From Escherichia coli (GTDB taxonomy: Bacteria > Pseudomonadota > Gammaproteobacteria > Enterobacterales > Enterobacteriaceae), in NCBI RefSeq assembly GCF_030384885.1, contig NZ_CP128613.1: a stretch of DNA of 64,000 nt; one strand, 5' to 3'. Each line of letters starts with the position of its first letter. Within the stretch, counting starts at the first letter, position 1. The notes under the pieces were generated by a model. The model searched no databases. It saw nothing but the letters and a program-made list of their open reading frames with translations, and was not told the DNA's origin. Both the position numbers and the translations under genes were made by a program. Shown one piece after another: positions 43,477 to 64,000 of this stretch.

Positions 43477-45553
43477 ATCGTTCCTCGCGCTACTGCGCGG
43501 CGGCAATCTCGGCGTGCCGCTGGTGATCTTGTGTATTCTGGCGATGGTTATTTTGCCGCTGCCGCCTGCGCTGCTGGATATTCTGTTCACCTTCAACATT
43601 GTGCTGGCGGTGATGGTGCTGCTGGTGGCGGTGTCGGCGAAACGTCCGCTGGAATTCAGCCTGTTCCCGACTATTTTGCTGATCACCACCTTAATGCGCC
43701 TGACGCTTAACGTTGCTTCTACGCGCGTGGTGCTGCTGCACGGGCATCTCGGCGCGGGCGCAGCGGGTAAGGTGATTGAGTCGTTTGGTCAGGTGGTGAT
43801 TGGCGGCAACTTTGTCGTCGGTTTCGTGGTGTTTATCATCCTGATGATCATCAACTTTATTGTCGTCACCAAAGGGGCCGAGCGTATTTCCGAGGTTTCT
43901 GCCCGCTTTACCCTAGACGCGATGCCCGGCAAGCAAATGGCGATTGACGCCGATCTTAACGCCGGGTTGATCAACCAGGCGCAGGCGCAGACCCGCCGCA
44001 AAGATGTTGCCAGCGAGGCCGATTTCTACGGCGCGATGGACGGGGCATCGAAGTTTGTGCGCGGGGATGCCATCGCCGGGATGATGATTCTGGCGATCAA
44101 CCTGATTGGCGGCGTTTGTATCGGGATCTTCAAATACAACCTGAGCGCCGATGCCGCCTTCCAGCAGTATGTGCTGATGACCATCGGTGACGGGCTGGTA
44201 GCGCAGATCCCGTCCCTGCTGCTCTCTACCGCGGCAGCGATTATCGTCACCCGCGTCAGCGACAACGGCGATATCGCCCATGACGTGCGCCATCAGTTGC
44301 TGGCAAGCCCGTCGGTGCTCTACACCGCCACCGGGATTATGTTCGTGCTGGCGGTGGTGCCGGGAATGCCGCACTTCCCGTTCCTGATGTTCAGCGCCTT
44401 GCTTGGCTTTACCGGCTGGCGAATGAGCAAACGCCCGCAGGCGGCGGAGGCGGAAGAGAAAAGCCTCGAAACGCTGACCCGCACAATCACTGAAACCAGC
44501 GAGCAACAGGTCAGTTGGGAAACCATTCCGCTGATCGAGCCCATCAGTTTAAGCCTCGGTTACAAGCTGGTGGCGCTGGTGGACAAAGCGCAGGGCAACC
44601 CGCTCACCCAGCGTATTCGCGGCGTGCGGCAGGTGATTTCCGACGGCAACGGCGTGCTGCTGCCGGAGATCCGTATTCGCGAAAACTTCCGCCTCAAGCC
44701 CAGCCAGTACGCCATTTTCATCAACGGCATTAAGGCTGATGAAGCTGATATTCCGGCGGATAAACTGATGGCGTTGCCCTCCAGCGAAACCTACGGCGAG
44801 ATAGACGGCGTGCTGGGGAACGACCCGGCGTACGGGATGCCGGTCACCTGGATTCAGCCCGCGCAGAAGGCGAAGGCGCTGAATATGGGGTATCAGGTGA
44901 TCGACAGCGCCAGCGTGATTGCTACCCATGTTAATAAGATTGTGCGCAGCTATATTCCTGATTTGTTTAACTATGACGACATCACGCAGTTGCATAACCG
45001 TTTGTCGTCAATGGCACCGCGCCTGGCAGAGGATTTGAGTGCGGCGCTGAATTACAGCCAGTTGCTGAAAGTGTACCGGGCACTACTGACCGAAGGCGTT
45101 TCCCTGCGCGATATCGTCACCATCGCCACCGTGCTGGTCGCCAGTAGCACCGTCACCAAAGATCATATTCTGCTGGCGGCCGATGTGCGCCTGGCACTGC
45201 GGCGCAGCATTACCCATCCGTTCGTTCGCAAGCAGGAGCTGACGGTGTATACGCTGAATAATGAGCTGGAAAACCTGCTGTCCAACGTGGTGAATCAGGC
45301 GCAACAGGCTGGCAAAGTGATGCTCGATAGCGTGCCGGTGGACCCGAATATGCTCAACCAGTTCCAGAACACGATGCCGCAGGTGAAAGAGCAGATGAAA
45401 GCGGCAGGGAAAGACCCGGTGCTGCTGGTGCCGCCGCAGTTGCGCCCTTTGCTGGCGCGTTATGCGAGGTTGTTTGCGCCGGGGTTGCATGTGCTGTCGT
45501 ATAACGAAGTGCCGGACGAGCTGGAGTTGAAGATTATGGGGGCGTTGAGTTGA
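43460..45553 (+). CDS. lfhA: Flagellar export apparatus gate protein (FlhA homologue), Flag-2, full length
   Basis: 697 aa; N-terminal TM domain, conserved FHIPx-like region and cytoplasmic C-domain. Confidence 0.9.
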   Translation: MAKTTKSFLALLRGGNLGVPLVILCILAMVILPLPPALLDILFTFNIVLAVMVLLVAVSAKRPLEFSLFPTILLITTLMRLTLNVASTRVVLLHGHLGAGAAGKVIESFGQVVIGGNFVVGFVVFIILMIINFIVVTKGAERISEVSARFTLDAMPGKQMAIDADLNAGLINQAQAQTRRKDVASEADFYGAMDGASKFVRGDAIAGMMILAINLIGGVCIGIFKYNLSADAAFQQYVLMTIGDGLVAQIPSLLLSTAAAIIVTRVSDNGDIAHDVRHQLLASPSVLYTATGIMFVLAVVPGMPHFPFLMFSALLGFTGWRMSKRPQAAEAEEKSLETLTRTITETSEQQVSWETIPLIEPISLSLGYKLVALVDKAQGNPLTQRIRGVRQVISDGNGVLLPEIRIRENFRLKPSQYAIFINGIKADEADIPADKLMALPSSETYGEIDGVLGNDPAYGMPVTWIQPAQKAKALNMGYQVIDSASVIATHVNKIVRSYIPDLFNYDDITQLHNRLSSMAPRLAEDLSAALNYSQLLKVYRALLTEGVSLRDIVTIATVLVASSTVTKDHILLAADVRLALRRSITHPFVRKQELTVYTLNNELENLLSNVVNQAQQAGKVMLDSVPVDPNMLNQFQNTMPQVKEQMKAAGKDPVLLVPPQLRPLLARYARLFAPGLHVLSYNEVPDELELKIMGALS

Positions 45554-45636: not shown

Positions 45637-45936
45637 ATGACGTCATGGATTGATAGTATGATTAAGGTCAGCGCGCTAGGCTCTCGTCATAGAAAAACAT
45701 TCGACGATGTAATGACGGAGCCGCCAAAATCTGGAATTAAATGGGATGATGTTGTTGCTCTCATTAAAGCGGTGGGTGGCTCAATAAAAAATAACAACGG
45801 CTCCAGACGAAAATTTCAGATTGGAACGACCAAATTCAGCACACATGAGCCGCATCCAAAGAATGTGATGGATAAAGGCGCAGTAGCAGGTCTTAAGGAG
45901 TGGTTTGTTAACTGTGTAGGGGTAGATTATGAATAA
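45637..45936 (+). CDS. HicA-like (YcfA fold) putative mRNA-interferase toxin
   Basis: 99 aa; ...KWDDVVALIKAVGGSIKNNNGSRRKFQIGTTKFSTHEPHPKNVMDKGAVAGLKEW resembles the HicA helix-strand-HxP pattern; 8-bp overlap with the downstream partner. Confidence 0.5.
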   Translation: MTSWIDSMIKVSALGSRHRKTFDDVMTEPPKSGIKWDDVVALIKAVGGSIKNNNGSRRKFQIGTTKFSTHEPHPKNVMDKGAVAGLKEWFVNCVGVDYE

Positions 45937-46285
45937 AGCATCGAACATTATCACAATTAAAGGTCAACCAGCCGCAGTGACATTTGAAGCCGATATCAAC
46001 GCATTTCGCGGCAAGTTCCTCAATGTAAACGGTTATTGTGACTTTGTAGCCACAAGTATTGAGGCATTATATCGTGAAGGCGAAAGCGCTCTGGATGAGT
46101 GGATGGCGGATTGTGAAGAGGACGGTATTGCCCCTTTTCGTGAAGAAGAAGAGCAAAAACGCCTGACGCTTCGTGTGCCGCATCACATCGATTCGCGGCT
46201 GACCATCGTCGCCAGACAACATTCCATTTCAAAAAACCAGCTCATTATTGATGTCTTAGAACGTGAGTTTTCAGCCCAGATGTAA
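45929..46285 (+). CDS. HicB-like putative antitoxin with C-terminal ribbon-helix-helix DNA-binding tail
   Basis: 118 aa; acidic linker then RLTLRVPHHIDSRLTIVARQHSISKNQLIIDVLEREF (RHH-like). Confidence 0.5.
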   Translation: MNKASNIITIKGQPAAVTFEADINAFRGKFLNVNGYCDFVATSIEALYREGESALDEWMADCEEDGIAPFREEEEQKRLTLRVPHHIDSRLTIVARQHSISKNQLIIDVLEREFSAQM

Positions 46286-46341: not shown

Positions 46342-47100
46342 TTACAAAATCGTCTCTTCCGTCAAAATCCGCCGCGCGCCTAAAAAATGATCATGCCAGA
46401 AAGGTTCAGCTAACCGACTTACCCGAATGGTTTCCCCGGTGCGCGGCGACTCGATAAACTGACCGTCTCCCAGATACACGCCCATATGGTCGGCAATCTC
46501 GCGGCTGTGAATATGGAAAAACAGCAAATCTCCCCGGCGCAGGTCGTTATTTGCCACAATGGTTGCCCGACGGTAGTGATACATCTCATTGGCCGTGCGC
46601 GGGAGTTTCGCCTCGAGGATCTTGTTGTAGGCATAAAAAACCAACCCGCTACAGTCGAAGCCTTGATCGGGTCGCGTGCCGCCCCAGACGTATGGCTTGC
46701 CAAGCTGCTGCTCCAGACGGTGAATCGCCACTTCGGTGATATTATGCAGGTGGTTACTGCTGAGGAAATGATTGTTTTCCGCCAGCGCCTGCCAGCGTCT
46801 GTCACTCGCCTTGAGCGGCGCAGGAAACCATTCTGGATGCTGTTTTATCTGTTCGCGGTTGTGTTGCCGCAGTGCCCTTCTGCTTTCGGCATTGCCTTCC
46901 ACAATATAGCTGGCCTGCTTTTTCAGATGAATTTGGTACTGTTTTAATAAACGCGCACGGTTTTGCATCCGCTGGCGGGCGGCGTAGCTGAAAGAGATAT
47001 GTGATGTGGTGGCGCTGGCGAGTAAAGGGAGCAAAACGCATAACGAAAACACGCCTGGATGCAGAAATCTGCCGAGCAAGAACGAAGACATGAAGGACAT
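46342..47100 (-). CDS. yafL: NlpC/P60-family peptidoglycan endopeptidase lipoprotein YafL
   Basis: 252 aa with signal peptide; C/H/H catalytic pattern (DCSGLV...H). Confidence 0.8.
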   Translation of the reverse strand: MSFMSSFLLGRFLHPGVFSLCVLLPLLASATTSHISFSYAARQRMQNRARLLKQYQIHLKKQASYIVEGNAESRRALRQHNREQIKQHPEWFPAPLKASDRRWQALAENNHFLSSNHLHNITEVAIHRLEQQLGKPYVWGGTRPDQGFDCSGLVFYAYNKILEAKLPRTANEMYHYRRATIVANNDLRRGDLLFFHIHSREIADHMGVYLGDGQFIESPRTGETIRVSRLAEPFWHDHFLGARRILTEETIL

Positions 47101-47391
47101 AAACCGGCTGAATGAAGGTGAGAATTTTAAAAGACCGGAGGAGTAAACGGGATTATTAATTGCTTATTTGCATATTACTATTGAGGTTTCATAATCTTAG
47201 GAAATAAATGATACATGCGCTTTTCGGACTAATGAAAACTGCCCTTGTGCTAAATTTGTAAACCCTGCGCCGACAGGCTTGCGTAAAACTCTTTTGGTGA
47301 TAATGTGAGCCTTCCAAATCCAGACTATTCCGATTTGGGATCCATTTTGCCGTCCTGGCGTGTGTAACCGTTTTATCAAGGAATAAGCAGT

Positions 47392-49809: not shown

Positions 49810-52254
49810 ATGATGATTTTGAGTATTCTCGCTACGGTTGTCCTGCTCGGCGCGTTGTTCTATCACCGCGTGAGCTTATTTATCAGCAGTCTGATTTTGC
49901 TCGCCTGGACAGCCGCCCTCGGCGTCGCTGGTCTGTGGTCGGCGTGGGTACTGGTGCCTCTGGCCATTATCCTCGTGCCATTTAACTTTGCGCCTATGCG
50001 TAAGTCGATGATTTCCGCGCCGGTATTTCGTGGATTCCGTAAGGTGATGCCACCGATGTCACGCACTGAAAAAGAAGCGATTGATGCAGGCACTACCTGG
50101 TGGGAAGGCGACTTGTTCCAGGGTAAGCCGGACTGGAAAAAGCTGCATAACTATCCGCAGCCGCGCCTGACCGCAGAAGAGCAAGCGTTTCTCGACGGCC
50201 CGGTAGAAGAAGCCTGCCGGATGGCGAATGATTTCCAGATTACTCATGAGCTGGCTGATTTGCCGCCGGAGCTGTGGGCGTACCTTAAAGAGCATCGCTT
50301 CTTCGCGATGATCATCAAAAAAGAGTACGGCGGGCTGGAGTTCTCGGCTTATGCCCAATCTCGTGTGCTGCAAAAACTCTCCGGCGTGAGCGGGATCCTG
50401 GCGATTACCGTCGGCGTGCCGAACTCATTAGGCCCGGGCGAGCTGCTGCAACATTACGGCACTGACGAGCAGAAAAATCACTATCTGCCGCGTCTGGCGC
50501 GTGGTCAGGAGCTCCCTTGCTTTGCACTGACCAGCCCGGAAGCGGGTTCCGATGCGGGCGCGATTCCGGATACCGGGATTGTCTGCATGGGCGAGTGGCA
50601 GGGCCAGCAGGTGCTGGGGATGCGACTGACCTGGAACAAACGCTACATTACGCTCGCGCCAATTGCTACCGTGCTTGGGCTGGCGTTTAAACTCTCCGAC
50701 CCGGAAAAACTGCTGGGTGGTGCAGAAGATTTAGGCATTACTTGTGCGCTGATCCCGACCACCACGCCAGGCGTGGAAATTGGTCGTCGCCACTTTCCGC
50801 TGAACGTACCGTTCCAGAACGGACCGACGCGCGGCAAAGATGTCTTCGTACCGATCGACTACATTATCGGCGGACCAAAAATGGCCGGGCAAGGCTGGCG
50901 GATGCTGGTGGAGTGTCTCTCCGTGGGCCGCGGCATCACCCTACCTTCCAACTCAACCGGCGGCGTGAAATCGGTAGCGCTGGCAACGGGCGCGTATGCG
51001 CACATTCGCCGTCAGTTCAAAATCTCTATCGGTAAGATGGAAGGGATTGAAGAGCCGCTGGCGCGTATTGCCGGGAACGCTTATGTAATGGATGCTGCGG
51101 CATCGCTGATTACCTACGGCATTATGCTCGGTGAAAAACCTGCCGTGCTGTCGGCTATCGTTAAGTATCACTGTACCCACCGCGGGCAGCAGTCGATTAT
51201 TGATGCGATGGATATCACCGGGGGCAAAGGCATTATGCTCGGGCAAAGCAACTTCCTGGCCCGTGCTTACCAGGGCGCACCGATTGCCATCACCGTTGAA
51301 GGGGCCAACATTCTGACCCGCAGCATGATGATCTTCGGTCAGGGAGCGATTCGTTGCCATCCGTACGTGCTGGAAGAGATGGAAGCGGCGAAGAACAATG
51401 ACGTTAACGCGTTCGATAAACTGCTATTCAAACATATCGGCCACGTCGGCAGTAACAAAGTTCGCAGCTTCTGGCTGGGCCTGACGCGCGGTTTAACCAG
51501 CAGCACACCAACCGGCGATGCCACTAAACGTTATTATCAGCACCTGAACCGCCTGAGTGCCAACCTCGCCCTGCTTTCTGATGTTTCGATGGCGGTGCTG
51601 GGCGGCAGCCTGAAACGTCGCGAACGCATCTCGGCACGTCTGGGGGATATTTTAAGTCAGCTTTACCTCGCCTCTGCCGTTCTGAAGCGTTATGACGACG
51701 AAGGCCGTAATGAAGCCGACCTGCCGCTGGTGCATTGGGGCGTACAGGATGCGCTGTATCAGGCTGAACAGGCAATGGACGATTTACTGCAAAACTTCCC
51801 GAACCGCGTGGTTGCCGGGCTGCTGAATGTGGTGATCTTCCCGACCGGACGCCATTATCTGGCACCGTCTGACAAACTGGATCATAAAGTGGCGAAGATT
51901 TTACAAGTGCCTAACGCCACCCGTTCACGTATTGGTCGCGGTCAGTACCTGACGCCGAGCGAGCATAACCCGGTTGGTTTACTGGAAGAGGCGCTGGTGG
52001 ATGTGATTGCCGCCGATCCGATTCATCAGCGGATCTGTAAAGAGCTGGGTAAAAACCTGCCATTTACCCGTCTGGATGAACTGGCGCACAACGCGCTGGC
52101 AAAGGGGCTGATTGATAAAGATGAAGCCGCTATTCTGGTGAAAGCTGAAGAGAGTCGTCTGCGCAGTATTAACGTTGATGACTTTGAGCCGGAAGAGCTG
52201 GCGACGAAGCCGGTAAAGTTGCCGGAGAAAGTGCGGAAAGTTGAAGCCGCATAA
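49810..52254 (+). CDS. fadE: Acyl-CoA dehydrogenase FadE
   Basis: ORF 49732..52254; likely start [17 protein letters not shown] (814 aa). Confidence 0.9.
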
Positions 52255-52261
52255 TTGAATA

Positions 52262-52281
52262 ACGGAGCCGAAAGGCTCCGT
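52262..52281. terminator. Hairpin between convergent fadE and ivy
   Basis: ACGGAGCCGAAAGGCTCCGT followed by TTTCATT. Confidence 0.6.
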
Positions 52282-52296
52282 TTCATTATCCGCTAA

Positions 52297-52770
52297 TTAT
52301 TTAAAATTAAAGCCATCCGGATGATTTTCCAGGCTGCCGGTCAACGCCGCGAATAGCACCGTTTTACCATCAATCGAAAGCGCATCATTCACATTCAACC
52401 AGGTGAGTTTCTCTTGCGACGTTTTCTCATCAATGGTCGAGAACAGCCCCGTCATCTGATTAGATTTCTCGGACCACATCACAGCGATACGTTGCGAGCC
52501 ACAGTCATGCGGTTTGCACGCGCTCATCACCTGATACGTCTCATCTCCCAACGTTACGGTTTGTGCAGGGGTATAAGTCCCGCCTTTCATCACCCAGGCA
52601 GGCAGCTTATGCCCTTGCACCATCTGATTAAACGCAGCTTTGGTGGTTTCGCCCTTTGCAAGGCTGCTAATGGTTAAATCATCCTGCGCCATTGCACTGG
52701 TGGCGATGACCAGAGCGGCGACTGTTGTTATTGCCTTAAACATCATTCCTCCCGAGCTTATCCTGCCCAT
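52297..52770 (-). CDS. ivy: Inhibitor of vertebrate lysozyme (Ivy)
   Basis: 157 aa, signal peptide, CKPHDCG loop motif. Confidence 0.9.
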   Translation of the reverse strand: MGRISSGGMMFKAITTVAALVIATSAMAQDDLTISSLAKGETTKAAFNQMVQGHKLPAWVMKGGTYTPAQTVTLGDETYQVMSACKPHDCGSQRIAVMWSEKSNQMTGLFSTIDEKTSQEKLTWLNVNDALSIDGKTVLFAALTGSLENHPDGFNFK

Positions 52771-52914
52771 GTTATTAACCTCCTAAAGCCTGGCGATAAC
52801 ACGATAATTTGCAAATCAGATATTTCCAATATCAGCATTTGTTATCAATTTATTCTGCGCTAAGGCAACTGCCTGATAAGGTGTTAAAGTTATAAAACCC
52901 TTCACATAAAGGAG

Positions 52915-53694
52915 TTGTACACCGTGCCTGGCTTGAAGATTACGCTTTTGCAGCAACCACTGGTGTGGATGGATGGTCCTGCCAACCTGCGCCATTTTGA
53001 TCGTCAACTAGAAGGTATTACCGGGCGCGATGTGATCGTTCTACCGGAGATGTTTACCAGCGGCTTTGCCATGGAAGCGGCAGCTTCGTCGCTAGCACAA
53101 GATGACGTAGTGAACTGGATGACAGCTAAAGCGCAGCAGTGCAATGCGCTGATTGCAGGCAGTGTTGCATTACAAACGGAGTCTGGTTCGGTTAACCGCT
53201 TTTTGCTGGTTGAGCCGGGCGGCACGGTACATTTTTATGATAAGCGTCATCTGTTCCGAATGGCAGATGAGCATCTGCATTATAAAGCGGGCAATGCGCG
53301 AGTGATTGTGGAATGGCGCGGCTGGCGTATTTTGCCGCTGGTGTGCTACGACCTGCGTTTTCCGGTGTGGTCGCGCAATCTCAACGATTATGACCTCGCC
53401 ATCTACGTTGCCAACTGGCCTGCACCGCGCTCTCTGCACTGGCAGGCATTGCTGACGGCCCGCGCGATTGAGAATCAGGCGTATGTGGCGGGATGCAATC
53501 GCGTCGGCAGCGATGGCAACGGCTGCCATTATCGCGGTGACAGCCGGGTGATTAATCCACAGGGCGAGATTATTACTACTGCCGACGCGCATCAGGCAAC
53601 GCGCATTGATGCCGAGTTGTCGATGGCGGTGTTAAGGGAATATAGAGAAAAGTTTCCAGCATGGCGGGATGCGGATGAGTTTAGGTTGTGGTGA
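52915..53694 (+). CDS. yafV: Nitrilase-superfamily omega-amidase YafV
   Basis: 259-aa ORF; carbon-nitrogen hydrolase pattern (E...K...C triad context). Confidence 0.85.
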   Translation: MYTVPGLKITLLQQPLVWMDGPANLRHFDRQLEGITGRDVIVLPEMFTSGFAMEAAASSLAQDDVVNWMTAKAQQCNALIAGSVALQTESGSVNRFLLVEPGGTVHFYDKRHLFRMADEHLHYKAGNARVIVEWRGWRILPLVCYDLRFPVWSRNLNDYDLAIYVANWPAPRSLHWQALLTARAIENQAYVAGCNRVGSDGNGCHYRGDSRVINPQGEIITTADAHQATRIDAELSMAVLREYREKFPAWRDADEFRLW

Positions 53695-53699
53695 GTGGG

Positions 53700-54950
53700 G
53701 GTTGTGTTTAGGGCCGGGGAGAGTCGGGGTAAGACTACGAAAGCCCGCTCCCAGCAAGGACTGACGCCAGATAGTTTCTGTCCATGGCTGCTTTTCGCAT
53801 CTTACGTCTTAACCCTGCCTTGAATACCTTATCATTCGTTAAAATATTAATAGCGATGTGCCGTATCCCTGAAAATAATTCTGCGGCGTTTCCTCTTCGT
53901 ATTTTGCAGTCGTCTTCATTCATTACCACGTCCAGACGCCAGTGCAGCTTATTCTCCACGTGCCAGTGATTTCGGATCGCTGTGGCGAACTTTTCTGCGG
54001 TTAAATCAGCAGAACTGATATAATATCTGACCGTCATTTCTGGCTCTTTCTTTTGTTCTGCTATTATTGACCGAAAGGAGAATGCCACGCATAATTTCTT
54101 CAGTCCTTTCCATTCAAACGTGAAATCAATAAGTTCATCACGGACATCGCAAACAATATGAAGACGGATTTCTTCTCTGCCGTGACTCTTTTCACTCATT
54201 GCGTAACTGTCATGCTCTGGATTATTTAATTCTTTCAGCGGAAATTTTTCCTCGAAGGCTTTATTTAGCCGCCCCTGGTTTCCTTTTACAGCGAATAAAT
54301 AATCACCTCCCTGTTTTTGTATCTTCTCTGCAATATCTTTCTGGCAACCCATCGCATCAGTTGTGATGATTTTTCCTTTAATATCCAGAATGTTAAGAAG
54401 TTCTGGGATAGCTGTAATCTCATTGGATTTCTCATCCGTCCTGATCTGTCCGATGACCAGACTGTGCATTGTTGAGAATGCACTAATGACATGAATCGCT
54501 CCCCTGCGGCGACTCTTGTCATAAGAATGCCGGAGTGTTTTTCCATCAATTGCGATGACGTCTTTATCATCTGAAGTATGGCAATCTCGCATCCAGTTAA
54601 TAAAGCACTCGTGAAATTTTGAAGGACTGATACAGGATACAACTCTGGCGATGGTATCGTGAACAGGAATACCATTTTCAAAATCACCATATTGTTTTAA
54701 AAAATCGCGATGTGCTTCCCCAAACTCCTCTATATGTTCCCAGCCTTCTGCACCAGAAATAACGGCACAAATAGTCAACAGTAGAATATCCGACAATTTA
54801 TGTTTCACTTTTGCAGGATTGTCTGTAATCGGGAATAACAGAAATATGTTCCATCAATTTTTTAAGTTCCATTCTTTTCTCCTTAATTATGTAAGGAGTA
54901 TTTGATCATGTATAAGCAATAAAAAAACAGCTTCAGGCAATGAGGAATAT
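53700..54950 (-). mobile_element. ISAs1-family insertion sequence (H-repeat element), approximate boundaries
   Basis: Transposase ORF plus flanking sequence; terminal inverted repeats not mapped. Confidence 0.5.
53735..54808 (-). CDS. ISAs1-family (H-repeat-associated) transposase; N-terminus appears frameshifted
   Basis: 357-aa ORF from a GTG; an upstream ATG-initiated segment ([21 protein letters not shown]) lies in a different frame across an A-run near 54809-54812. Confidence 0.8.
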
Positions 54951-54994
54951 CTCAATTTTTAAACATAAAATGCGAATTGTTTAGTACAAAAAAG

Positions 54995-57000
54995 CAGCGT
55001 TAAGTGAGTAGGCCACCGGAACCTCCCCGACAGCCTCTCGCAGAACCGTACGTGAAACTCTCGCTTCATACGGCTCCCGTCAGGCAAACGCGCTTCCTGG
55101 TCCTGCTTTCCAGTGGGCAAACAACTCCGGCTTCTCTTTTGACAGCCTTTCCATTAGCTGACACGCCTTCGTCTTTCTATACCGCAGGGTTTTATATTTC
55201 TTTCTCGCCCACGCAATCAGCGTCAGATTAATATATCTGCATACTTTCTTCATCGCTGATTTGTGGTATCTCGCGTAATAATTCAGCCACCCCGATATTA
55301 TCGGATTCAGCCACTTCGCAATATCTTCGAGACTCATCTCCACCCTGCGTCTGATCCACAGTTTCCTGAGTTTTCCAATCATGCCTTTCTGCGCACGGTT
55401 ACTCGCCGCCGGGCTGAAACTCGTAAAGAGGTTTCCCCGCCGGTGGTTACGTGCTCTTCGCGCTCTGAACGTATACCCCAGAAAATCAAACTGCACTGTT
55501 TCATGGTTCGCCTGTCGTTCGCTGTCTTTGCAGTAAACTATTTTCGTTTTCTCCGGATGTAATTCCAGTCCACATTCCTGAAAACGTTTTGCCAGCTTAT
55601 TCAGTAATTCCTCTGCCTGTTGTTTACTGCCACAATGAATTAATCCATCATCTGCATAACGGCACCAGGGAATTTCCGGATAATGTAACGTCAGCCATTT
55701 ATCAAACACATAGTGCAGAAATAAATTCGCCAGTACCGGGCTGATGACTCCACCCTGTGGCGTACCTTTATTTCTTTCCTTCAGTGTTCCATCCGGCATC
55801 TGCACCGGCGCTGTCAGCCACCGGCGAATAGACAGTCTTACCCATTTATCCGCACAATGTTTATCCACTGCCCTGAGTAATAAATCGTGGGGGATATTAT
55901 CGAATAACCCTTTAATATCAAACTCAAGACACCAGTCGTATTGCCAGCAACGTTTTCTGGTGACTGCTATTGCATCCAGCGCTGATTTTCCATGCCGGTA
56001 TCCGTATGAATCATTCAGGAAATAACGCTCCACTAATGGTTCAAACGTTACCAGCACCGTCATCTGCGCTATTCGATCGCTTACTGTCGGTATTCCTAAA
56101 AGTCTTTTGCTGCCATCCTTCTTCGGAATTTCCACCGCACGCACTGGCGGCGGCATCCAGCTTCCCGACGATAACCTGTTCCAGATTTTGTACAGATTTC
56201 CTTTCAGATCCCGCTCAAAATCTTTCAGCGTCTGGTTATCCACTCCGGCAGCTCCGGCATTCGCCTTTATCCGCCGGTACGCTTCCACCACATGCAATTT
56301 ACTGACCTGAAACGGTTTTGTCTGTTCACACACAGCCTCCTCCTGCCTACAGTTGGGCTGTGATGCAGACTGCCCGACGCTGTCCCTTCGCTCCACGTTC
56401 ATTACAAACGCTTCCTCACTACTACGAACAGCTCTGCCCCGGTTTCGCACATCGATACTCTCATACTCATAATTTCGGTTATTTGTATTTCTCTCTTGAC
56501 ATTGCGACGACCGGTTCCCGTAGTTCCTGCAAAGAGCCCGATACAGCGTCATGCCTGCTATACACCGGACATCATTCACGCAGCATTCGGAATTCACCCG
56601 TAAATTAATCCCGGCGGTATCACGAAACCTCCGGTTTTGATGTCACTTAGGACTAACGACGTTTCAACACAGGTTCGGGTTTACTCATCTCACTGTATCT
56701 CACATAGGATCAGATCTCGTCTGATCGTTCCCCCTGCGCTCACTACCATGGCTCTTTACCACAGCAGCCGGGGTTGTTTGGGACCGACTTCCGACAGCAG
56801 ATCCCGGTGGGCCTGCCACCATCTCTTCACAAGCTTATGCTTATTACATGCAAAACGTCCCGTTTTGCATCTTTGTGCCTACGGCACACCGTGATCTTTC
56901 CCTAGCATATCGCCCTGACGCGCCGCTGGTTTTACGCTCATGGTATCTCCTTAAATTATTTTGGGCTGTATTCTGGCACCATAGACTCTGATTTATCACC
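54995..57000 (-). mobile_element. Bacterial group II intron (approximate boundaries) with intron-encoded reverse transcriptase/maturase
   Basis: RT ORF plus a domain V hairpin on the minus strand (GAGCCGTATGAAGCGAGAGTTTCACGTACGGTTC, about 55042-55075) immediately 3' of the ORF stop; 5' boundary estimated about 0.6 kb upstream of the ORF start. Confidence 0.7.
55080..56597 (-). CDS. Group II intron reverse transcriptase/maturase (true start probably internal, about 56402)
   Basis: RT fingers/palm motifs incl. YADD (CRYADDGLIHC), then maturase X-domain and C-terminal Zn-finger-like region. Confidence 0.85.
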   Translation of the reverse strand: MNSECCVNDVRCIAGMTLYRALCRNYGNRSSQCQERNTNNRNYEYESIDVRNRGRAVRSSEEAFVMNVERRDSVGQSASQPNCRQEEAVCEQTKPFQVSKLHVVEAYRRIKANAGAAGVDNQTLKDFERDLKGNLYKIWNRLSSGSWMPPPVRAVEIPKKDGSKRLLGIPTVSDRIAQMTVLVTFEPLVERYFLNDSYGYRHGKSALDAIAVTRKRCWQYDWCLEFDIKGLFDNIPHDLLLRAVDKHCADKWVRLSIRRWLTAPVQMPDGTLKERNKGTPQGGVISPVLANLFLHYVFDKWLTLHYPEIPWCRYADDGLIHCGSKQQAEELLNKLAKRFQECGLELHPEKTKIVYCKDSERQANHETVQFDFLGYTFRARRARNHRRGNLFTSFSPAASNRAQKGMIGKLRKLWIRRRVEMSLEDIAKWLNPIISGWLNYYARYHKSAMKKVCRYINLTLIAWARKKYKTLRYRKTKACQLMERLSKEKPELFAHWKAGPGSAFA

Positions 57001-57138
57001 AATACTCAAAACACCATTAATCAGAAAAATCAGCATCTACATATAATTAATTAGAATAATTCAATAAATTATTTTTCTGCCATTATTGACTTGGCTTTTT
57101 ATTGAATGAAATAAAAGAAAAAATCATCACCTAAAAAT

Positions 57139-57777
57139 TTAGTAGACGTTTCTTGTTACTATATGCGCATCATCAACCAAACGCCCGGAACTATCTGTTT
57201 CCTCATGATCAGATACACACATTTCTGGTGCATATCCTGAAAAATCAGAAGTCGCATTCGGATAATTTGTGACATCTAATCTTAATTTAAAACTATATAT
57301 CTCCCAAAATAATTCAGGAGATCTTTCAGGCAAAAAATCATAAATATCAATAAGTATCTTCATCCCCCTTACACGGAACTCCCTCCTGTGTCCATATAAC
57401 GGATGATCTTTACATCCACCAATGATTTGGGACAGAAAAAATCTTGCTCGTGTTTCTGTTACTCCCCAATTAGCAACAGGTTGAAAAATTTCAGAACCAT
57501 CTTTCACACTAAAAAATTTACATTGGTAAAAGCCTGAAAACGTACCATATTCTCCAATATATTTTTCTGATTCATTATAATCCATGCAAACAAAAACATA
57601 TTCAATATCTCCATTTTTTGCCATAACATCATGGATAATAAATGGATTGTTTTGTGATACAGAGAAAATACTATGTACGTTCTGCACTTCAACATTTAAA
57701 GCCCATATATCACTGGGAAAGAAAATCAAACATATCAAATACAACCAAAATTTCATTATTGCGTACCACTCGGACAA
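57139..57777 (-). CDS. Putative immunity protein cognate to the upstream Rhs C-terminal toxin (secreted/periplasmic, about 205-212 aa)
   Basis: Starts at or overlapping the Rhs-fragment stop; hydrophobic N-terminus; AT-rich. Confidence 0.45.
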
Positions 57778-58748
57778 CTCATATCATCAGGTATAGTAAT
57801 TATTACATCTTGAATGCCCATATCCTTCTCTAGCCCTGGTATTTCAAGAATCAACTTTCCGGGATTTTTATCCATTAACTTTTGCTGAGGGTTTATATTA
57901 TTTCTACGCAAAGCCGAATCATCAACGATGTCCCTGACACAACTAAACAGCTGAGTACCATCAGCTTTTAATTTTCCGCTAATAGAATTTATTTTATTTC
58001 TGGCAGATGGTTTATCCCTAAATCCCCATTGAGAAGGGATAATTGCTGTCGAGTCAGTTGTTACTCCGTATTTATCCAAATTTGAAGGACTAGTGTTATA
58101 TCCACCACCTTTCCCAACTAGTCTCGAATTTCCTTGTAATACTCGTGCGCTGCCTATACATTCTTTTAACCCCAAAGGATCTATATACCCCACAGGATCC
58201 AGCGGATACGCATACAGGTTCCAGCCCCCCTTCAGCCCTATCGGATCCTGGGTAATATACCTCCCCTGCAACGGGTCATAGTACCGGTGATGGTTGTAAT
58301 ACAGTCCCGACTCCTCATCATACTGCTGCCCCGGCAGACGGAGTGACTGTTGCAGGTGCAGCGTGCTTTCCTCTCCCAGCAGGTTTCCCCACTCGTCATA
58401 CTCCCCCTGCCACGCCGTTTCCCCTTCCGGGCTGATGAGCGCCTGCGGCAGCCCACGGTGGTCACAGTGGTAAAGATGAAGTTTCCTCTCCGGGATGTAT
58501 TCCGCCTCCATCTGCGCCGCCATCTGTTCCGCCGTCAGCCCGCACTGCGCAAGCCACTGCTGGCTTTCCTCACTCACCGCGCCCGTGCGCAGCTCCCGCT
58601 CCAGCCTTCCCAGCATCACCGCCAGCTCCGCCGGTAGCGTCACCCCCGTGTCCTCCTGCAACATCTCCGCCAGGCTATCCTGCATCGCCGTCTGGCCGGA
58701 AAGCCTGCAACAGCAGCAGGCTACGACACAATGGAATGAAGCACTCAA
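57756..58748 (-). CDS. Orphan Rhs C-terminal fragment: end of Rhs core (DPxGL boundary) plus about 140-aa variable toxin domain
   Basis: 330 aa; ...[45 protein letters not shown] then an unrelated AT-rich C-terminal domain; no full-length rhs upstream. Confidence 0.7.
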
Positions 58749-59105
58749 AACCCGCGCACAGAGTAGCCCACAGTTGCGTGGCTGGTTGCAGACCCGCCAG
58801 GACTTACATGCTTTTGCAGATCTCGTGATGCAGCGCGAGAAAGAGGGATTAACCCTTTCCTATATCAAAAATGTCATCTGGCAGGCGGAGCGGGGGCTGG
58901 GGCAGGAAACGCCTGTGGAATCTCTGCTGACGCAGTACCAGGATGCCCGTGCGCAGAAGCAGAATACAGATGCGCTGGAAAAACAGATTAACGAGCGGAT
59001 GGACGGCGTGTTAAGTCGCTGGCTGCTGCTGAAGAATAATACGATACCGACGATAAAAAAAGACATTGAATTTCAATAACATTCATGAATACAAAGGAGC
59101 TTTAA

Positions 59106-59585
59106 ATGGCGAATTTAATTTATTTAACACTAAATGGTGATAATCAAGGGCTCATTTCAAGTGGTTGTTCATCACAACCATCCATTGGAAATAAAGCTCA
59201 AACAGCACACATTGATCAAATTATGATTTATGAATTCATGCATGGATTAAATCGAGATCAAAACGTCAACCATCATCATTTGACAATAAAAAAACCTATA
59301 GATAAAGCATCACCCTTATTAGGCAAAGCAATTTGCGACAATGAATTATTGACATGTGATTTTTCCTTTTATCGTACAAATAAATTTGGAATTAATGAAC
59401 TGTACTATAAAATCAAATTAACTGGAGCAAAGATAAGCGACATTCATGTCTCTATATCACATATTGTTGTTGATAACAGCGTTCAACCCGAAGAGTCAGT
59501 TTCTTTCAGTTATGAGTCAATTATATGGGAGCATTGTTCCGCTGGCACTAGTGCATACAGTTTATGGGAAGATCGTCTTTTTTAA
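59106..59585 (+). CDS. hcp: Hcp-family protein (type VI secretion tube/carrier), orphan copy
   Basis: 159 aa; MANLIYLTLNGDNQGLISSG... and KPIDKASPLLGKAICDNELLTCDFSFYR...ELYYKIKLTGAKISDI match Hcp beta-sandwich conserved stretches by eye. Confidence 0.65.
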   Translation: MANLIYLTLNGDNQGLISSGCSSQPSIGNKAQTAHIDQIMIYEFMHGLNRDQNVNHHHLTIKKPIDKASPLLGKAICDNELLTCDFSFYRTNKFGINELYYKIKLTGAKISDIHVSISHIVVDNSVQPEESVSFSYESIIWEHCSAGTSAYSLWEDRLF

Positions 59586-59605
59586 AAATATCTGGGATTA
59601 TTATA

Positions 59606-60502
59606 ATGGCTAACAATATTTTACACTCTTCAACATCAGACAGTGAAAACAAAAATACAAGCACTGACAGTACGTTATTTAATGAAAAATTCCCATTTCA
59701 ACTAAGGCAAGATTTCGCATCAAGAATAACAGAAGATGAAAGTGATTTTTTTAAATGGAAAAAAATAAGAGAGTTGGCATTTGTGAGCAATCATAAAGAA
59801 TGGAATAAATATGACTTATTAATTTTAAAATCTGTTAATGAAATCAACATTCATTTGTCCAGCACTCCATACTTTCAGCCGTTGGATTGGTATATAATAA
59901 AAGCCATGCTCTGGACTGAAAACGATGCGGCAAATACTTCTCAGTGGAATGGTTATCCATTACAAATTGGTCGTTTTCGGAAAGATAAAGCGATGCCTGC
60001 TTTAATTTCTGGAGAAAAATCCACAGCCCTTGTTACCCCCCCACAATGGAGAAACAAAGCATTCAATGGGTTAAAAGATCCAGAAAGAAATTACTGGGCA
60101 AAAGAACAAATAACTGGCTCTCCAGAAGAGAATATCAAAGCAGCAATTACTTACTTAATGATGAAACTTTCTAATACAAAGGAAGAGTCAACTATCGTTC
60201 AATATGACTCAACTCTATATAGCACCATTGTCCAAAAAGGCGATTTGGCTGACAACATCAGAAAAGAGAGAAAAACGACCATACCTAACTTAACGAAAAA
60301 CAACCCTGGAAAAAATCTCGATAAAATACACCCGGGAGATATTTTATATTATCAAAAAGCATCCATGAAAGTAATAATTACTGGATGGAAACCTATCACA
60401 ATAAAAAATGTAGCGATGAATTATAATGGTGGTGGAGATCCCAAGTATGCAATAAAACTTCAGTTCGTTTATACATTGCTCACAAAAAACAGAGTGTTAT
60501 AA
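59606..60502 (+). CDS. Putative Hcp-associated effector (about 298 aa, no Cys, C-terminal LysM-like segment)
   Basis: ORF 59564..60502; likely start MANNILHSS; C-terminal YSTIVQKGDLADNIRKERKTTIPNLTKNNPGKNLDKIHPGDILYY resembles LysM spacing; followed by two small secreted proteins. Confidence 0.4.
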   Translation: MANNILHSSTSDSENKNTSTDSTLFNEKFPFQLRQDFASRITEDESDFFKWKKIRELAFVSNHKEWNKYDLLILKSVNEINIHLSSTPYFQPLDWYIIKAMLWTENDAANTSQWNGYPLQIGRFRKDKAMPALISGEKSTALVTPPQWRNKAFNGLKDPERNYWAKEQITGSPEENIKAAITYLMMKLSNTKEESTIVQYDSTLYSTIVQKGDLADNIRKERKTTIPNLTKNNPGKNLDKIHPGDILYYQKASMKVIITGWKPITIKNVAMNYNGGGDPKYAIKLQFVYTLLTKNRVL

Positions 60503-60504
60503 GA

Positions 60505-60954
60505 ATGGGAAAAATAACAATTATTCTACTGCTTACATTCTCATGTACAAAAGGTCTGGCATTTGACATTTCCATGTCTAAAGAATGTAGTGGCGTTGAT
60601 GAACTTGAATTTGTTGATTGTGTTAAAAACTCATTTATTATGAGCACTATTACACTTAAAAAAGCAGAAGTAAATATAAAAGAGAAAATTAAAAAATGGA
60701 ATAACGATGAGGACGAAGCAATAAGAAAAGAAGCAGTTATTTCTTTAAAAAGACTAGAATCTTCTAATCGGGAATTTATACGTTACAGATTTGCTCAATG
60801 CTCTTTTGCTCTAACCTGGGGGGCCAGAGTAGGACGTCTGGCATTCTCTCGACTATATCCATGCTATACTGAGTTAAACAAAATTAGAGCCATGCAACTA
60901 AACAATGCTTTCATTTCAGATTTTCAAAACCCAGATGAGATATCCAGCAAATGA
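60505..60954 (+). CDS. Small secreted Cys-containing helical protein; putative immunity protein 1
   Basis: 149 aa, N-terminal signal/anchor, four Cys; 3 bp after effector stop. Confidence 0.4.
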   Translation: MGKITIILLLTFSCTKGLAFDISMSKECSGVDELEFVDCVKNSFIMSTITLKKAEVNIKEKIKKWNNDEDEAIRKEAVISLKRLESSNREFIRYRFAQCSFALTWGARVGRLAFSRLYPCYTELNKIRAMQLNNAFISDFQNPDEISSK

Positions 60955-61307
60955 TTATTATAAAATTAAGATTAACATTACTATTTATACTGGCCACAAT
61001 TACATATTCAGTACAATCAGACGAATTCGATGATCAAACCACTTACACGAAATACCGTTATTTTTCCACAGCCATACCAGAAGATATACGTAGATTTATG
61101 TTCTACGTAGATTATTGCTTTGTAGATTTAGCATTCGATATCGAAACTGACTCAATGACAGCTAAAAATGATATTATTAATGAATGTACTCCATTAAAAG
61201 AAAGAAACAAAACATTAAAAGAAAAATATAAAAAAGATGAAGAGATAATAGCAATTCTTTCCATTGCAGATGATACCATTTTAATTTATGAAGAATTAAA
61301 AAAATAA
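60951..61307 (+). CDS. Small secreted protein; putative immunity protein 2
   Basis: 118 aa with signal peptide; 4-bp overlap with previous gene; very AT-rich. Confidence 0.35.
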   Translation: MIIIKLRLTLLFILATITYSVQSDEFDDQTTYTKYRYFSTAIPEDIRRFMFYVDYCFVDLAFDIETDSMTAKNDIINECTPLKERNKTLKEKYKKDEEIIAILSIADDTILIYEELKK

Positions 61308-61433
61308 CTCACATGCAATTCACTGGCAATATATATTATAATTTTATAAAAAAAATAATATTTACATTATAGAAATACTCAGCTCCTGTTTGCTGCCCGC
61401 CCTAAACTACAGGCGGCAGCATAACAATAACGA

Positions 61434-62234
61434 TTACTGGAATCGACTCACCAAGTCTTTCACCATCGATACATATGTTTTTTGTTTCAAATTAAACAGT
61501 TGCACTTCCGTAACATGGTCCTTTGATAGTTCTTTATTGCTCGTTTTTGTTATTCCAGCCGGCGGAAAAATTACTCTCGATTCATAATTCACCGGCGACC
61601 AGGTAGCCCACTCACCTGTTGCCACATCCACCAGCGTGAAACGTACCAGGTAGCGCAGGGAGATAGTGTCAGTGAGTTTTTCATTTTTATAGTCGGACCA
61701 TACTGTTGATTTCAGCGCAGAGTCATATTTTCCTGTCTGCAACGTATCATGGTAAACAATAATCGCTTTCTGATGCCCTTTCGCAGCCACAAAACGCAAT
61801 GCCTGCATCCAGTTCATATTTTCAGCACTGGCAACATCCTCGTTCTCATTTTTATCTTTATTTTTGTTACAAGTCAGAGGCTTTTGCCTGTCCGGGATAC
61901 CAGAGAATGTGGAAACAGTATAATATTTTCTCATCTCCTCCTGCATAATGGTTTCCGGTGCGCGACTGCCAGACTGGACAAGTATTACGGGAGAATTGAG
62001 AGGCACACGAAACTCATCTCCTTCAAGCGCAGCCTGAATATCCTCCTCGGATACAGCCAGAGTGGTTTCATTACCGAATAAATCTTTGTCTGTCAGTTGC
62101 GGGGGAATGTTTTTATTAATATTACTTTGTGTAACTTGAGCTTTTTTCTTTTTTTCATCAATAGAAGATTGAGAGGCACATCCTGCAAGCAGCGAGAATA
62201 ATACACATATGCAACAAACTTTTTTTGAATTCAT
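61434..62234 (-). CDS. yafT: Lipoprotein YafT
   Basis: 266 aa with lipobox LLAGC; conserved position next to aspV. Confidence 0.7.
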
Positions 62235-62559
62235 AATCGGACACTCCCTCGCCTGTCATAATGATTAGAATATTTAGCACTGATAACGGACTCTAATTAT
62301 ATACCCCACTTAAATAATAACAAACAAAATCAACATGAAATATACATTCATTTAGTCAATATAAAATTATTCTCTAAAAATATATTTAAGTTGAATGGTT
62401 CGATATCATTATTGAATTTTAATAAATGAGACAACAAGCGAGAGTTACGCACTTACGCCAGAGTAAAATCATTGAACAGAGAAATAGCGGGATTTAAATG
62501 CAAAAAACCGCAAAATTAAAAATCTTGCGGTTCTCTGAACTCATTTTCATGAGTAAATT

Positions 62560-62636
62560 TGGCGGAACGGACGGGACTCGAACCCGCGACCCCCTGCGTG
62601 ACAGGCAGGTATTCTAACCGACTGAACTACCGCTCC
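62560..62636 (-). tRNA. aspV: tRNA-Asp (anticodon GUC)
   Basis: Reverse complement reads GGAGCGGTAGTTCAGTCGGTTAGAATACCTGCCTGTCACGCAGGGGGTCGCGGGTTCGAGTCCCGTCCGTTCCGCCA. Confidence 0.9.
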
Positions 62637-62768
62637 GCGTTGTGTTCCGTTGGGAACGAGGCGAATATTACGGATTGCCTCACCCTTCGTCAACGGTTTT
62701 TCTCATCTTTTGAATCGTTTGCTGCAAAAATCGCCCAAGTCGCTATTTTTAGCGCCTTTTACAGGTAT

Positions 62769-63500
62769 TTATGCCCGCCAGAGGCAGCTTCCGCCCTTTT
62801 TCTGCACCAGATCGAGACGGGCTTCATGTGCCGCAAGCTCTTCATCTGTCGCAAAAACAACGCGTAACTTACTTGCCTGACGCACAATGCGCTGAATTGT
62901 TGTTTCACCTTGTTGCTGTTGTGTCTCTCCTTCCATCGCAAAAGCCATCGACGTTTGACCACCAGTCATCGCCAGATAAACTTCCGCAAGGATCTGGGCA
63001 TCGAGTAATGCCCCGTGCAGCGTTCGTTTACTGTTATCTATTTCATAACGAGCACATAACGCATCAAGGCTGTTGCGCTTGCCAGGAAACATTTTCCTCG
63101 CCACCGCAAGGCTATCTGTGACCTTACAGAAGGTATTGGTCTTCGGAATATCGCGCTTGAGCAACGAAAACTCATAGTCCATAAAGCCGATATCGAACGC
63201 TGCGTTATGGATCACGAGCTCCGCGCCGCGAATATAGTTCATGAACTCATCGGCTACTTCGGCAAATGTGGGCTTATCGAGCAAAAACTCATCGGCAATA
63301 CCATGTACGCCAAAGGCTTCTGGATCCACCAGCCGATCGGGTTTGAGATAAACGTGAAAGTTATTGCCCGTCAGGCGACGGTTCACCACTTCAACGGCAC
63401 CAATCTCAATGATCTTGTGGCCTTCATAGTGCGCACCAATCTGGTTCATACCGGTGGTTTCGGTATCGAGAACGATCTGGCGTGTAATTGCAGTGCTCAT
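62769..63500 (-). CDS. dnaQ: DNA polymerase III epsilon subunit (3'-5' proofreading exonuclease)
   Basis: ORF 62769..63509; start [20 protein letters not shown]; DEDDh motifs. Confidence 0.95.
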
Positions 63501-63564
63501 AGCGGTCATTTATGTCAGACTTGTCATTTTACAGTTCGATTCAATTACAGGAAGTCTACCAGAG

Positions 63565-64000
63565 ATGCTTAAACAGGTAGAAATTTTCACCGATGGTTCG
63601 TGTCTGGGTAATCCTGGACCCGGGGGTTACGGCGCTATTTTACGCTATCGCGGACGCGAGAAAACCTTTAGCGCTGGCTACACCCGCACCACCAACAACC
63701 GTATGGAGTTGATGGCCGCTATTGTCGCGCTGGAGGCGTTAAAAGAACATTGCGAAGTCATTTTGAGTACCGACAGCCAGTATGTCCGCCAGGGGATCAC
63801 CCAGTGGATCCATAACTGGAAAAAACGTGGCTGGAAAACAGCAGACAAAAAACCAGTAAAAAATGTCGATCTCTGGCAACGTCTTGATGCTGCATTGGGG
63901 CAGCATCAAATCAAATGGGAATGGGTTAAAGGCCATGCCGGACACCCGGAAAACGAACGCTGTGATGAACTGGCTCGTGCTGCGGCGATGAATCCCACAC
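63565..64000 (+). CDS. rnhA: Ribonuclease HI, N-terminal about 145 aa; runs off the window end
   Basis: [35 protein letters not shown]...; divergent from dnaQ. Confidence 0.9.

Follow-up and report, generated by a model that had tools for sequence, protein, structure and literature searches.

Genomic setting and base composition

The window analysed here, a stretch of 64,000 nucleotides of an Escherichia coli genome (assembly GCF_030384885.1, contig NZ_CP128613.1), includes towards its right end an interval between the core gene yafV and the tRNA gene aspV that carries the terminal genes of a type VI secretion system (T6SS) island, the aspV-linked T6SS-2 of the species. Alignment to MG1655 identifies the window as the thrW-aspV region of E. 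coli, inverted relative to K-12. Both tRNA genes, thrW (tRNA-Thr(CGT), 4,121-4,196) and aspV (tRNA-Asp(GTC), 62,560-62,636), lie on the minus strand and were located with ARAGORN, aspV also with Rfam. Common to MG1655 are proA-dinB (4.1-16.8 kb), lfhA-yafV (43.8-54.0 kb) and yafT-aspV-dnaQ-rnhA (61.6-64.0 kb). The stretches 16,765-43,840, which belong to the Flag-2 lateral flagella block, and 54,016-61,579 are absent from K-12.

Base composition changes sharply along the window, whose overall GC is 0.518. The core has a mean GC of 0.507 (SD 0.044, minimum 0.410; 500-nt windows, n=84), Flag-2 (16,765-43,840) has 0.562, and the aspV-yafV interval (53,701-62,559) has 0.408. The GC at third codon positions (GC3) follows the same order, with 0.689 in Flag-2 genes, 0.541 +/- 0.062 in core genes and 0.19-0.30 in the cargo genes of the island, so that a GC-rich Flag-2 and an intermediate core, as described in the initial annotation, are borne out. 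Of the 53.7-62.4 kb that it covered, the 53.7-57.0 kb part, made up of an ISAs1 element and a group II intron, is intermediate at 0.455 and not AT-rich. The 57,000-62,400 segment has a GC of 0.381 and the long A/T runs ascribed to it (4.07 runs of at least 6 nt per kb, versus 0.6-1.0 per kb in core and Flag-2), but it is not homogeneous, as a patch of 0.595 occupies 58,186-59,035 (0.85 kb; Rhs core and VasL remnants). Likelihood segmentation placed change points at 15,465, 38,315, 53,770, 56,950, 58,185, 59,035 and 62,560, with log-likelihood ratios of 46-465, and returned none in five shuffles of the sequence. From 53,770 onward the change points match, exactly or closely, the boundaries of independently identified features, the last being the 3' nucleotide of aspV. 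Windows, GC3 and segmentation thus agree that composition is not uniform. The initial annotation also put the AT-rich island beside Flag-2, but core genes (hicAB, yafL, dpaA, yafJ, gmhA, fadE, ivy, yafV) spanning about 8 kb lie in between.

Features of the aspV-yafV interval

The interval and its two borders contain the following features.

52,915-53,694, plus strand: yafV, the core gene bordering the island, from the annotation of homologous loci (GC 0.545).
53,727-54,992, minus strand: ISAs1-family (ISEc1-like, "H-repeat") element with its transposase at 53,735-54,872 (NCBIfam transpos_ISAs1; GC about 0.41).
54,999-56,889, minus strand: group II intron of about 1.9 kb, with the 5' end GTGTG at 56,889 and the 3' end placed to +/-6 nt (GC 0.49).
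56,890-56,941, minus strand: 52-nt 5' exon, the first 17 codons of an apparently PAAR-like open reading frame (ORF) (MSVKPAARQGDMLGKDH...) interrupted by the intron, as read from the sequence.
57,139-57,756, minus strand: rhsI, a putative immunity gene of 205 aa with an N-terminal signal peptide, overlapping the rhs stop codon (GC 0.333, GC3 0.243).
57,756-58,166, minus strand: Rhs C-terminal toxin tip, 136 aa after DPLGL, of no recognisable family (GC about 0.38).
58,167-58,677, minus strand: Rhs core remnant, the last ~170 codons of the core (NF041261 RHS_core positions 1082-1261 of 1261, TIGR03696; GC 0.60).
58,676-58,694, plus strand: deletion scar, a 19-nt tssM relic.
58,692-59,140, plus strand: 3' fragment of a VasL-domain gene, the "tssA2" of some authors (Pfam VasL, E = 8e-20; GC about 0.51).
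59,106-59,585, plus strand: hcp (tssD), whose ortholog in enterohaemorrhagic E. coli (EHEC) is Hcp1 (PMC7216683, PMC12981562; T6SS_HCP, E = 1.8e-23; TIGR03344, E = 1e-58; GC 0.329, GC3 0.237).
59,606-60,502, plus strand: etse4ori, an intact 298-aa predicted periplasm-acting effector with a lysozyme-like/lytic-transglycosylase-like domain and LysM (GC 0.337).
60,505-60,954, plus strand: etsi4 ortholog, encoding a protein of 149 aa with a signal peptide and a weak resemblance to LprI/DUF1311 (GC 0.336).
60,951-61,307, plus strand: 118-aa signal-peptide protein with no assigned function, the most AT-rich gene of the window (GC 0.266, GC3 0.193).
61,434-62,234, minus strand: yafT-like lipoprotein gene, near-core and highly polymorphic, aligning to K-12 yafT (GC 0.416).
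62,235-62,559: AT-rich intergenic DNA with the aspV terminator hairpin, conserved in K-12 (GC 0.298).
62,560-62,636, minus strand: aspV, whose 3' end is a compositional change point.

The mobile and conflict elements that had been expected here are indeed present, in the form of an Rhs toxin/immunity pair, an Etse4/Etsi4 pair, the ISAs1 element and the group II intron.

A T6SS-2 island and its probable deletion scar

In EHEC, aspV anchors a T6SS "pathogenicity island" of 37 kb (PMC5363993), and the aspV-linked system has been named T6SS-2 (PMC7216683, PMC10711316). The interval occupies the same site between yafV and aspV and carries the characteristic end genes, colinear and 99.9% identical to the island of E. 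coli 2013C-4282. The core set itself, tssA-M (13 genes) plus vgrG, is not there: hcp (tssD), the 19-nt tssM relic and the vasL fragment are what is left.

Window positions 52,243-58,677 are 99.94% identical, and positions 58,692-64,000 are 99.98% identical, to the 2013C-4282 island. In that strain (locus L004) the two matching stretches are separated by 25,878 bp, the colinearity ending at 6,435 on the rhs side and resuming at 32,314 on the vasL side. The window has thereby lost the entire machinery of the aspV-linked T6SS: the greater part of both rhs and vasL, together with vgrG, one hcp and the genes from tssB to tssM. For the 14 nt that separate the two homologies, random filler was considered and then rejected on account of an exact 19-nt match to tssM. 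This relic corresponds to L004 28,419-28,437, inside tssM; it keeps the colinear order and orientation and has 2 nt (TA) in common with the rhs side and 3 nt (CTG) in common with the vasL side. The colinear relic and the microhomologies polarise the event as a deletion in the lineage of the window.

The 2013C-4282 island also accounts for the composition. In its intact form it measures 34.7 kb with a GC of 0.523. The T6SS core (0.558), vgrG (0.558) and the rhs core (0.641) are GC-normal or GC-rich, and rhsI (0.333), the Rhs tip (0.38), hcp2 (0.329), the effector (0.34), the immunity gene (0.336) and the small orf (0.266) are AT-rich, as are yafT (0.416) and the intergenic DNA (0.298). The island is thus not intrinsically AT-rich, and the window looks AT-rich because the 25.9-kb deletion removed the GC-normal majority.

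Counts of genomes throughout refer to 5,426 complete E. coli genomes. None of them has the full configuration of the aspV-yafV interval found in the window. Other rhs/vasL junctions occur in ten, E. coli C included, and an rhs/tssM junction occurs in one enterotoxigenic (ETEC) strain. K-12 holds a still smaller remnant, in which yafF is an ISAs1 tail at the same site.

Proposed origin of the AT-rich remnant

The aspV-yafV interval (53.7-62.56 kb) is very probably a degraded remnant of the aspV-linked T6SS-2 island of E. coli. The ancestor would have resembled 2013C-4282, with a complete 34.7-kb island of 52% GC in the order yafV, ISAs1, group II intron, rhsI-rhs, vgrG, hcp, tssB...tssM, vasL, hcp, etse4, etsi4, orf, yafT, aspV. 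A microhomology-mediated rearrangement would then have taken out the 25,864 bp between a point in rhs and a point in vasL, either as two deletions, of 21,985 bp and 3,879 bp, or as a single template-switching event. Such a loss would have swept away all GC-normal structural genes and left the two terminal cargo cassettes (GC 0.27-0.38) together with the Rhs-associated ISAs1 element and intron. The cassettes themselves would be exchanged between genomes by recombination in conserved flanks, in the manner of Rhs-tip or effector-cassette replacement, and not by integration at the tRNA gene. The abrupt shifts in GC correspond to borders that polymorphic-toxin loci normally have inside them, one between Rhs core and tip/immunity and the other between T6SS genes and the hcp-effector-immunity cassette. 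The structure of the junction, as read from its letters, would indicate an illegitimate or replicative rearrangement; for comparable deletions in sequence type 410 (ST410) homologous recombination was suggested by the authors.

We infer that the T6SS at this locus is non-functional. The surviving rhsI and etsi4 may still protect against T6SS-proficient relatives, and the AT-rich cassettes are probably silenced by H-NS, by analogy with what has been reported for the EHEC cluster.

Several points weigh against this account or narrow it. The exact rhs/tssM/vasL junction occurs in none of the complete genomes, and a misassembly at this place is formally possible, with the tssM relic and the microhomologies arguing for a real event. 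Protection by the immunity genes, silencing by H-NS and expression of the truncated rhs ORF are deductions, and the view is that of a 64-kb window, with any T6SS elsewhere in the genome beyond its reach. Moreover, a frameshift is annotated in the VasL-domain gene even of strains that possess the full cluster (L004 31,352-32,762; L003 5,039-6,455; L001 8,328-9,738), and given this annotation the "intact" ancestor may already have been impaired.

Alternative explanations

In the initial annotation, the 3' side of aspV was taken as an integration hotspot at which independent AT-rich mobile and conflict elements had been inserted serially. This has some appeal, as the interval abuts a tRNA gene with a compositional shift exactly at its 3' end, contains an insertion sequence, a group II intron and two toxin/immunity pairs, and varies in length from 2.4 kb in K-12 through 8.9 kb in the window to 34.7 kb in 2013C-4282. 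Non-core composition does begin directly 3' of the tRNA gene, at 62,559. Nevertheless, no integrase domain, tyrosine or serine, was found in any ORF of 53.7-62.6 kb, nor does any other recombinase lie in the interval, and no repeat of the aspV 3' end (62,560-62,600) that could mark attL and attR occurs within 53,500-62,800. The 1.25 kb adjoining aspV (yafT and intergenic DNA, 61,308-62,559, GC 0.30-0.42) is present in 4,340 of the genomes (80%) at 80-95% identity, so that the AT-rich tRNA-proximal DNA is near-core rather than a recent insert, and variable DNA starts only beyond yafT. Both AT-rich cassettes are the two ends of one T6SS island in a 99.9%-identical strain, and ISAs1 and the intron, regular companions of Rhs loci, lie at the far (yafV) end. 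Serial integration at aspV is therefore improbable. Of the separate acquisitions proposed along with it, what stands is that Flag-2 and the AT-rich DNA differ in their non-core composition and in their history; any acquisition of Flag-2 was ancient, and the AT-rich modules are the cargo of one system.

The two other explanations are less probable still. An assembly artefact, in which the rhs/vasL junction, and possibly the left junction of Flag-2, would hide a genome with the full island, might be suspected because both junctions are absent from all complete genomes and because Rhs genes, being repeated in E. coli, are a classic cause of misjoins. It is nonetheless very unlikely, since rhs and vasL have no repeat in common, since an opposite-strand join through a 19-nt tssM relic with microhomologies carries the signature of illegitimate recombination and is unlike a repeat-collapse misjoin, and since analogous natural deletions are documented (PMC10711316, and the other genomes noted here). 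Hardly credible is the notion of AT-richness as a secondary effect, whereby relaxed selection and AT-biased mutation eroded the locus once the T6SS was lost. Pseudogenes do occur among the remnants (truncated rhs, truncated vasL, the frameshifted ISAs1 transposase), but it is precisely the truncated pieces, of rhs and of vasL, that are GC-rich, and the ORFs of hcp, etse4ori, etsi4 and rhsI are intact. The GC is equal in the intact 2013C-4282 island, with 5 substitutions in 11.7 kb, and the segments are equally AT-rich in O157:H7 (97.6% identity) and Lelliottia. The remnant of a T6SS-2 island left by deletion is the reading retained below.

The Rhs tip and its immunity gene

The N-terminal ~1,090 codons of rhs are deleted and the last 306 codons remain. 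These have the make-up of an Rhs polymorphic toxin: a core domain (TIGR03696, E = 3e-25) ending in the PxxxxDPxGL motif, here read as ...YIDPLGL, a 136-aa tip and the adjacent rhsI. The full YD-repeat shell and the N-terminal delivery region are missing, as the match covers model positions 1082-1261 of 1261. The tip with rhsI is present in a single one of the complete E. coli genomes, and only 3 homologs of the tip were found among 5.8 billion proteins. A handful of homologs of the tip or rhsI come from Citrobacter, Lelliottia and E. fergusonii. In Lelliottia wanjuensis, the tip (83% amino acid identity) and the immunity protein (68%) come after a full-length Rhs at another locus, where GC drops at the corresponding point from about 0.62 to 0.34; this identical drop makes the step intrinsic to the Rhs module.

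The product of rhsI has no Pfam or NCBIfam match. Its predicted signal peptide would imply a periplasmic target for the tip, which makes this near-unique toxin with a signal peptide-bearing immunity protein a lead of its own. An AlphaFold2 model of the tip, built from 4 sequences, reached a mean predicted local distance difference test (pLDDT) of 56, too poor for a fold search. A sequence match in the PDB to C-type lysozyme (E = 0.14) was treated as chance, because the catalytic Glu35 and Asp52 were unaligned. Classical Rhs elements were reportedly described by Hill and colleagues in 1994. A full-text literature search on the "GC-rich core" of Rhs gave nothing useful. Classical elements consist of a GC-rich core, an AT-rich core-extension or tip, a downstream ORF and the H-repeat, which is ISAs1 (Jackson et al. 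2009, PMC2935791).

ISAs1 and the group II intron

The ISAs1 element encodes a DDE transposase (NF033564, E = 2.9e-124) and is homologous to the ISEc1 of locus L001. Its reading frame is not intact, since a stop ends translation from the ATG at 54,872 after 24 codons and an internal GTG then opens the long ORF. The transposase is annotated as frameshifted in 2013C-4282 too.

The intron combines ribozyme domains, a reverse transcriptase/maturase and a 5' GUGYG end, the marks of a group II intron. Rfam matches lie at 56,703-56,820 (RF01999, 93 bits, D1-D4) and 55,003-55,078 (RF00029, 63 bits, DV/DVI), and the ltrA ORF occupies 55,080-56,402 (TIGR04416, E = 7e-128; RVT_1; GIIM). Full-length copies are found in 82 genomes, with five matching places in 2013C-4282, and this copy number suggests that the intron may be active in splicing and retromobility. 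The PAAR-like nature of the 5' exon would follow from its motif. Only about 6 nt lie between the 3' end of the intron and the start of ISAs1 homology, so that the rest of the target gene of the intron is gone.

About 2,800 of the genomes contain a 5' fragment of the intron (170-207 nt) along with 14 nt of the 5' exon seen here. In LY180, the one genome examined for its position, the fragment lies between ISAs1 and the downstream ORF of RhsE (window 56,697-56,903; L007 3,501-3,708). The pattern suggests that the association of Rhs, intron and ISAs1 is old and recurrent.

The hcp-etse4-etsi4 cassette

At the aspV end, the hcp-effector-immunity cassette is shared by 364 genomes, and the O157:H7 copy is 97.6% identical. 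The 298-aa ORF represents etse4 in its intact form, reading TTA where EHEC etse4 has a TAA nonsense mutation. Its family counts 360 representatives at 50% identity, with an invariant Glu in a W-x-E-S/N motif and a LysM domain, and one relative is fused to a core domain of an extracellular contractile injection system (eCIS). A structural model gives Etse4ori a predicted lytic-transglycosylase-like fold that would hold the invariant Glu as its catalytic residue. A sequence search of the PDB with Etse4ori alone returned zero matches.

The EHEC ortholog Etse4 is toxic in the periplasm and is rescued by Etsi4 (PMC12981562). For the proteins of the window, the signal peptides on both products downstream of etse4ori point to a comparable, predicted neutralisation in the periplasm. 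In 2013C-4282 the uninterrupted, identical etse4ori (L004 33,228-34,124) is split by the Prokaryotic Genome Annotation Pipeline (PGAP) into a "partial" and a "hypothetical protein" coding sequence. The split is an annotation artefact, probably due to source evidence taken from the nonsense-mutated EHEC allele.

tRNA-flanking DNA at aspV and thrW

The yafT region is far more divergent than the core genes next to it, a pattern suggestive of diversifying selection or of allelic exchange. At the other end of the window the picture contrasts with that at aspV, as thrW is adjoined by a tyrosine integrase gene (2,943-4,106; Phage_integrase, E = 5e-48). Together with a phage antiterminator Q gene at 915-1,604, it indicates a prophage at thrW (window 1-4,106). 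Strain 2013C-4282 is without this prophage and has only a 112-nt remnant of the integrase gene.

The Flag-2 block

16,762-45,553: Flag-2 lateral flagella block (GC 0.562, GC3 0.689), from flgL-side genes to an intact lfhA/flhA (43,460-45,553).

Flag-2 exceeds the core by 5.5 points in GC and 15 points in GC3. The excess in Enterobacteriaceae averages +2.1% with a maximum of +5.8% (PMC6993521), which puts the window at the top of the range. The locus is considered an ancestral possession of E. coli that ~75% of strains have lost by deletion (De Maayer et al. 2020, PMC6993521); in the present set, a 25-kb Flag-2 probe (at least 80% covered) was found in 884 genomes and the deletion scar in 4,073. 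The syntenic set of ~39 conserved genes that includes lafA and lafT/lafU is incomplete in the window, which lacks lafA, fliD, motA/lafT and the sigma-factor gene and retains only 205 nt of lafU. At the left junction (16,757-16,764) lafU is joined to the gene adjoining flgL through a TCACC microhomology, an arrangement with no counterpart in the complete genomes.

Four naRNA4/REP-type elements (repetitive extragenic palindromes) lie in Flag-2 intergenic DNA (19,612-19,807, 23,055-23,131, 39,065-39,141) and are 84-89% identical to REP clusters of the K-12 core. Such E. coli-type elements are consistent with long residence, any acquisition being ancient. One of them, together with the intergenic DNA between a sigma-54-dependent regulator gene and fliM, coincides with a GC dip at 38-40 kb.

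Around Flag-2 the window and 2013C-4282, the nearest sequenced genome, are nearly clonal. The 12,657 nt on the left contain no substitution and a single homopolymer indel, and the 8.6 kb on the right contain 1 substitution beyond the boundary. The sole difference in the 12.6-kb left flank is the C-run at 16,377 in dinB. In the window this run has 6 C and dinB is intact (351 aa, 15,434-16,489); in 2013C-4282 it has 5 C and the gene is annotated as frameshifted. Strain 2013C-4282 is without Flag-2 and has the ancient K-12-type lafU'/lfhA' scar, its junction the same as in K-12 to the nucleotide. The window instead has 27,079 bp of Flag-2 (16,762-43,840), seamless in lfhA on the right and joined in lafU on the left by a 5-nt microhomology, with 555 nt of lafU' lost.

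An origin of the 2013C-4282 scar by recurrent repeat-mediated deletion, which would account for the identical flanks, was rejected as implausible, as the microhomology is ~3 nt (ATC) and the junction is identical to that of K-12. A foreign, divergent donor of Flag-2 is unsupported, since identity to other Flag-2-positive strains is 97.0% inside and 97.6% in the flank, with no step at the right boundary.

Tentatively, the 27-kb block might be a recent re-acquisition in this strain. If it was regained, the homologous anchor in lfhA and the microhomology join in lafU' would form the signature of homology-facilitated illegitimate recombination (HFIR). The alternative, also plausible given that the interior of Flag-2 diverges from other E. 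coli no more than its flanks do, consists of two events, a deletion in a Flag-2-positive ancestor and the import of the scar allele into 2013C-4282. A true regain would provide a natural 27-kb example of HFIR partly restoring an ancestrally deleted locus, and the near-clonal pair differing by the presence of 27 kb of Flag-2 is a lead in itself.

Other differences from K-12

Compared with K-12, the window lacks two toxin-antitoxin pairs, yafN-yafO and dinJ-yafQ, as well as rayT, a REP transposase gene (15,434-15,440, 47,028-47,251, 45,637-46,285), and a hicA-hicB pair stands at the position held by rayT in K-12. An rtcB-like RNA ligase gene (13,528-14,667) and a YdjM-like hydrolase gene are intact (12,330-14,667), where K-12 has only the pseudogene remnants ykfJ and prfH.

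Comparison with known systems

Every component of the locus is of a known kind: the GC step of Rhs, Etse4/Etsi4, equivalent T6SS deletions and the GC excess of Flag-2 are all published. The locus adds another independent loss of T6SS-2 in E. coli, and the retention of both immunity cassettes fits the idea of immunity outliving the weapon. For composition-based island calling, it illustrates that an "AT-rich island" may merely reflect the deletion of a GC-normal majority.

Flag-2 agrees with the known locus (Ren et al. 2005; PMC6993521) in its site between dinB and yafL, a GC above the genome average and flg/fli/flh synteny. It differs from both that locus and the lfhA'-lafU' scar in representing a third state, without lafA through lafT and most of lafU and with a unique microhomology junction.

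The window shares its end genes with the T6SS-2 island: towards aspV these are yafT, orf, etsi4, etse4, hcp and vasL, and towards yafV they are rhs, rhsI and ISAs1. Nucleotide identity in the cassette next to aspV is 97.6-100% (PMC5363993, PMC7216683, PMC12981562). In contrast to that island, the 13 core tss genes are all deleted here, as are vgrG and one hcp, and the Rhs tip is of a rare type. The closest parallels to this loss are the T6SS-inactivating deletions of ST410-B/H24, of 21.0 kb from rhsG to tssM and 19.8 kb from tssD1 to tssA2 (Cummins et al. 2023, PMC10711316). They resemble the event in locus, in outcome, in a left breakpoint in rhs, in the retention of hcp2 and "tssA2"/vasL and in a junction free of mobile elements. 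The event in the window differs in its breakpoints in rhs and vasL, its length of 25.9 kb and its tripartite junction with a 19-nt relic and 2-3-nt microhomologies, a scar that is a further lead.

As in classical Rhs elements, a core with a GC of ~0.60-0.64 meets a tip and immunity gene of 0.33-0.38, the boundary carries the DPxGL motif and ISAs1/H-rpt lies downstream. Unlike them, the window keeps only ~170 core codons, has a complete group II intron separating the immunity gene from ISAs1, and bears a nearly unique tip. Etse4ori, finally, shares with Etse4/Etsi4 (PMC12981562) and with lysozyme-fold T6SS effectors such as Tse3 a LysM domain, a predicted lysozyme-like fold, an invariant Glu and a neighbouring signal-peptide immunity protein.

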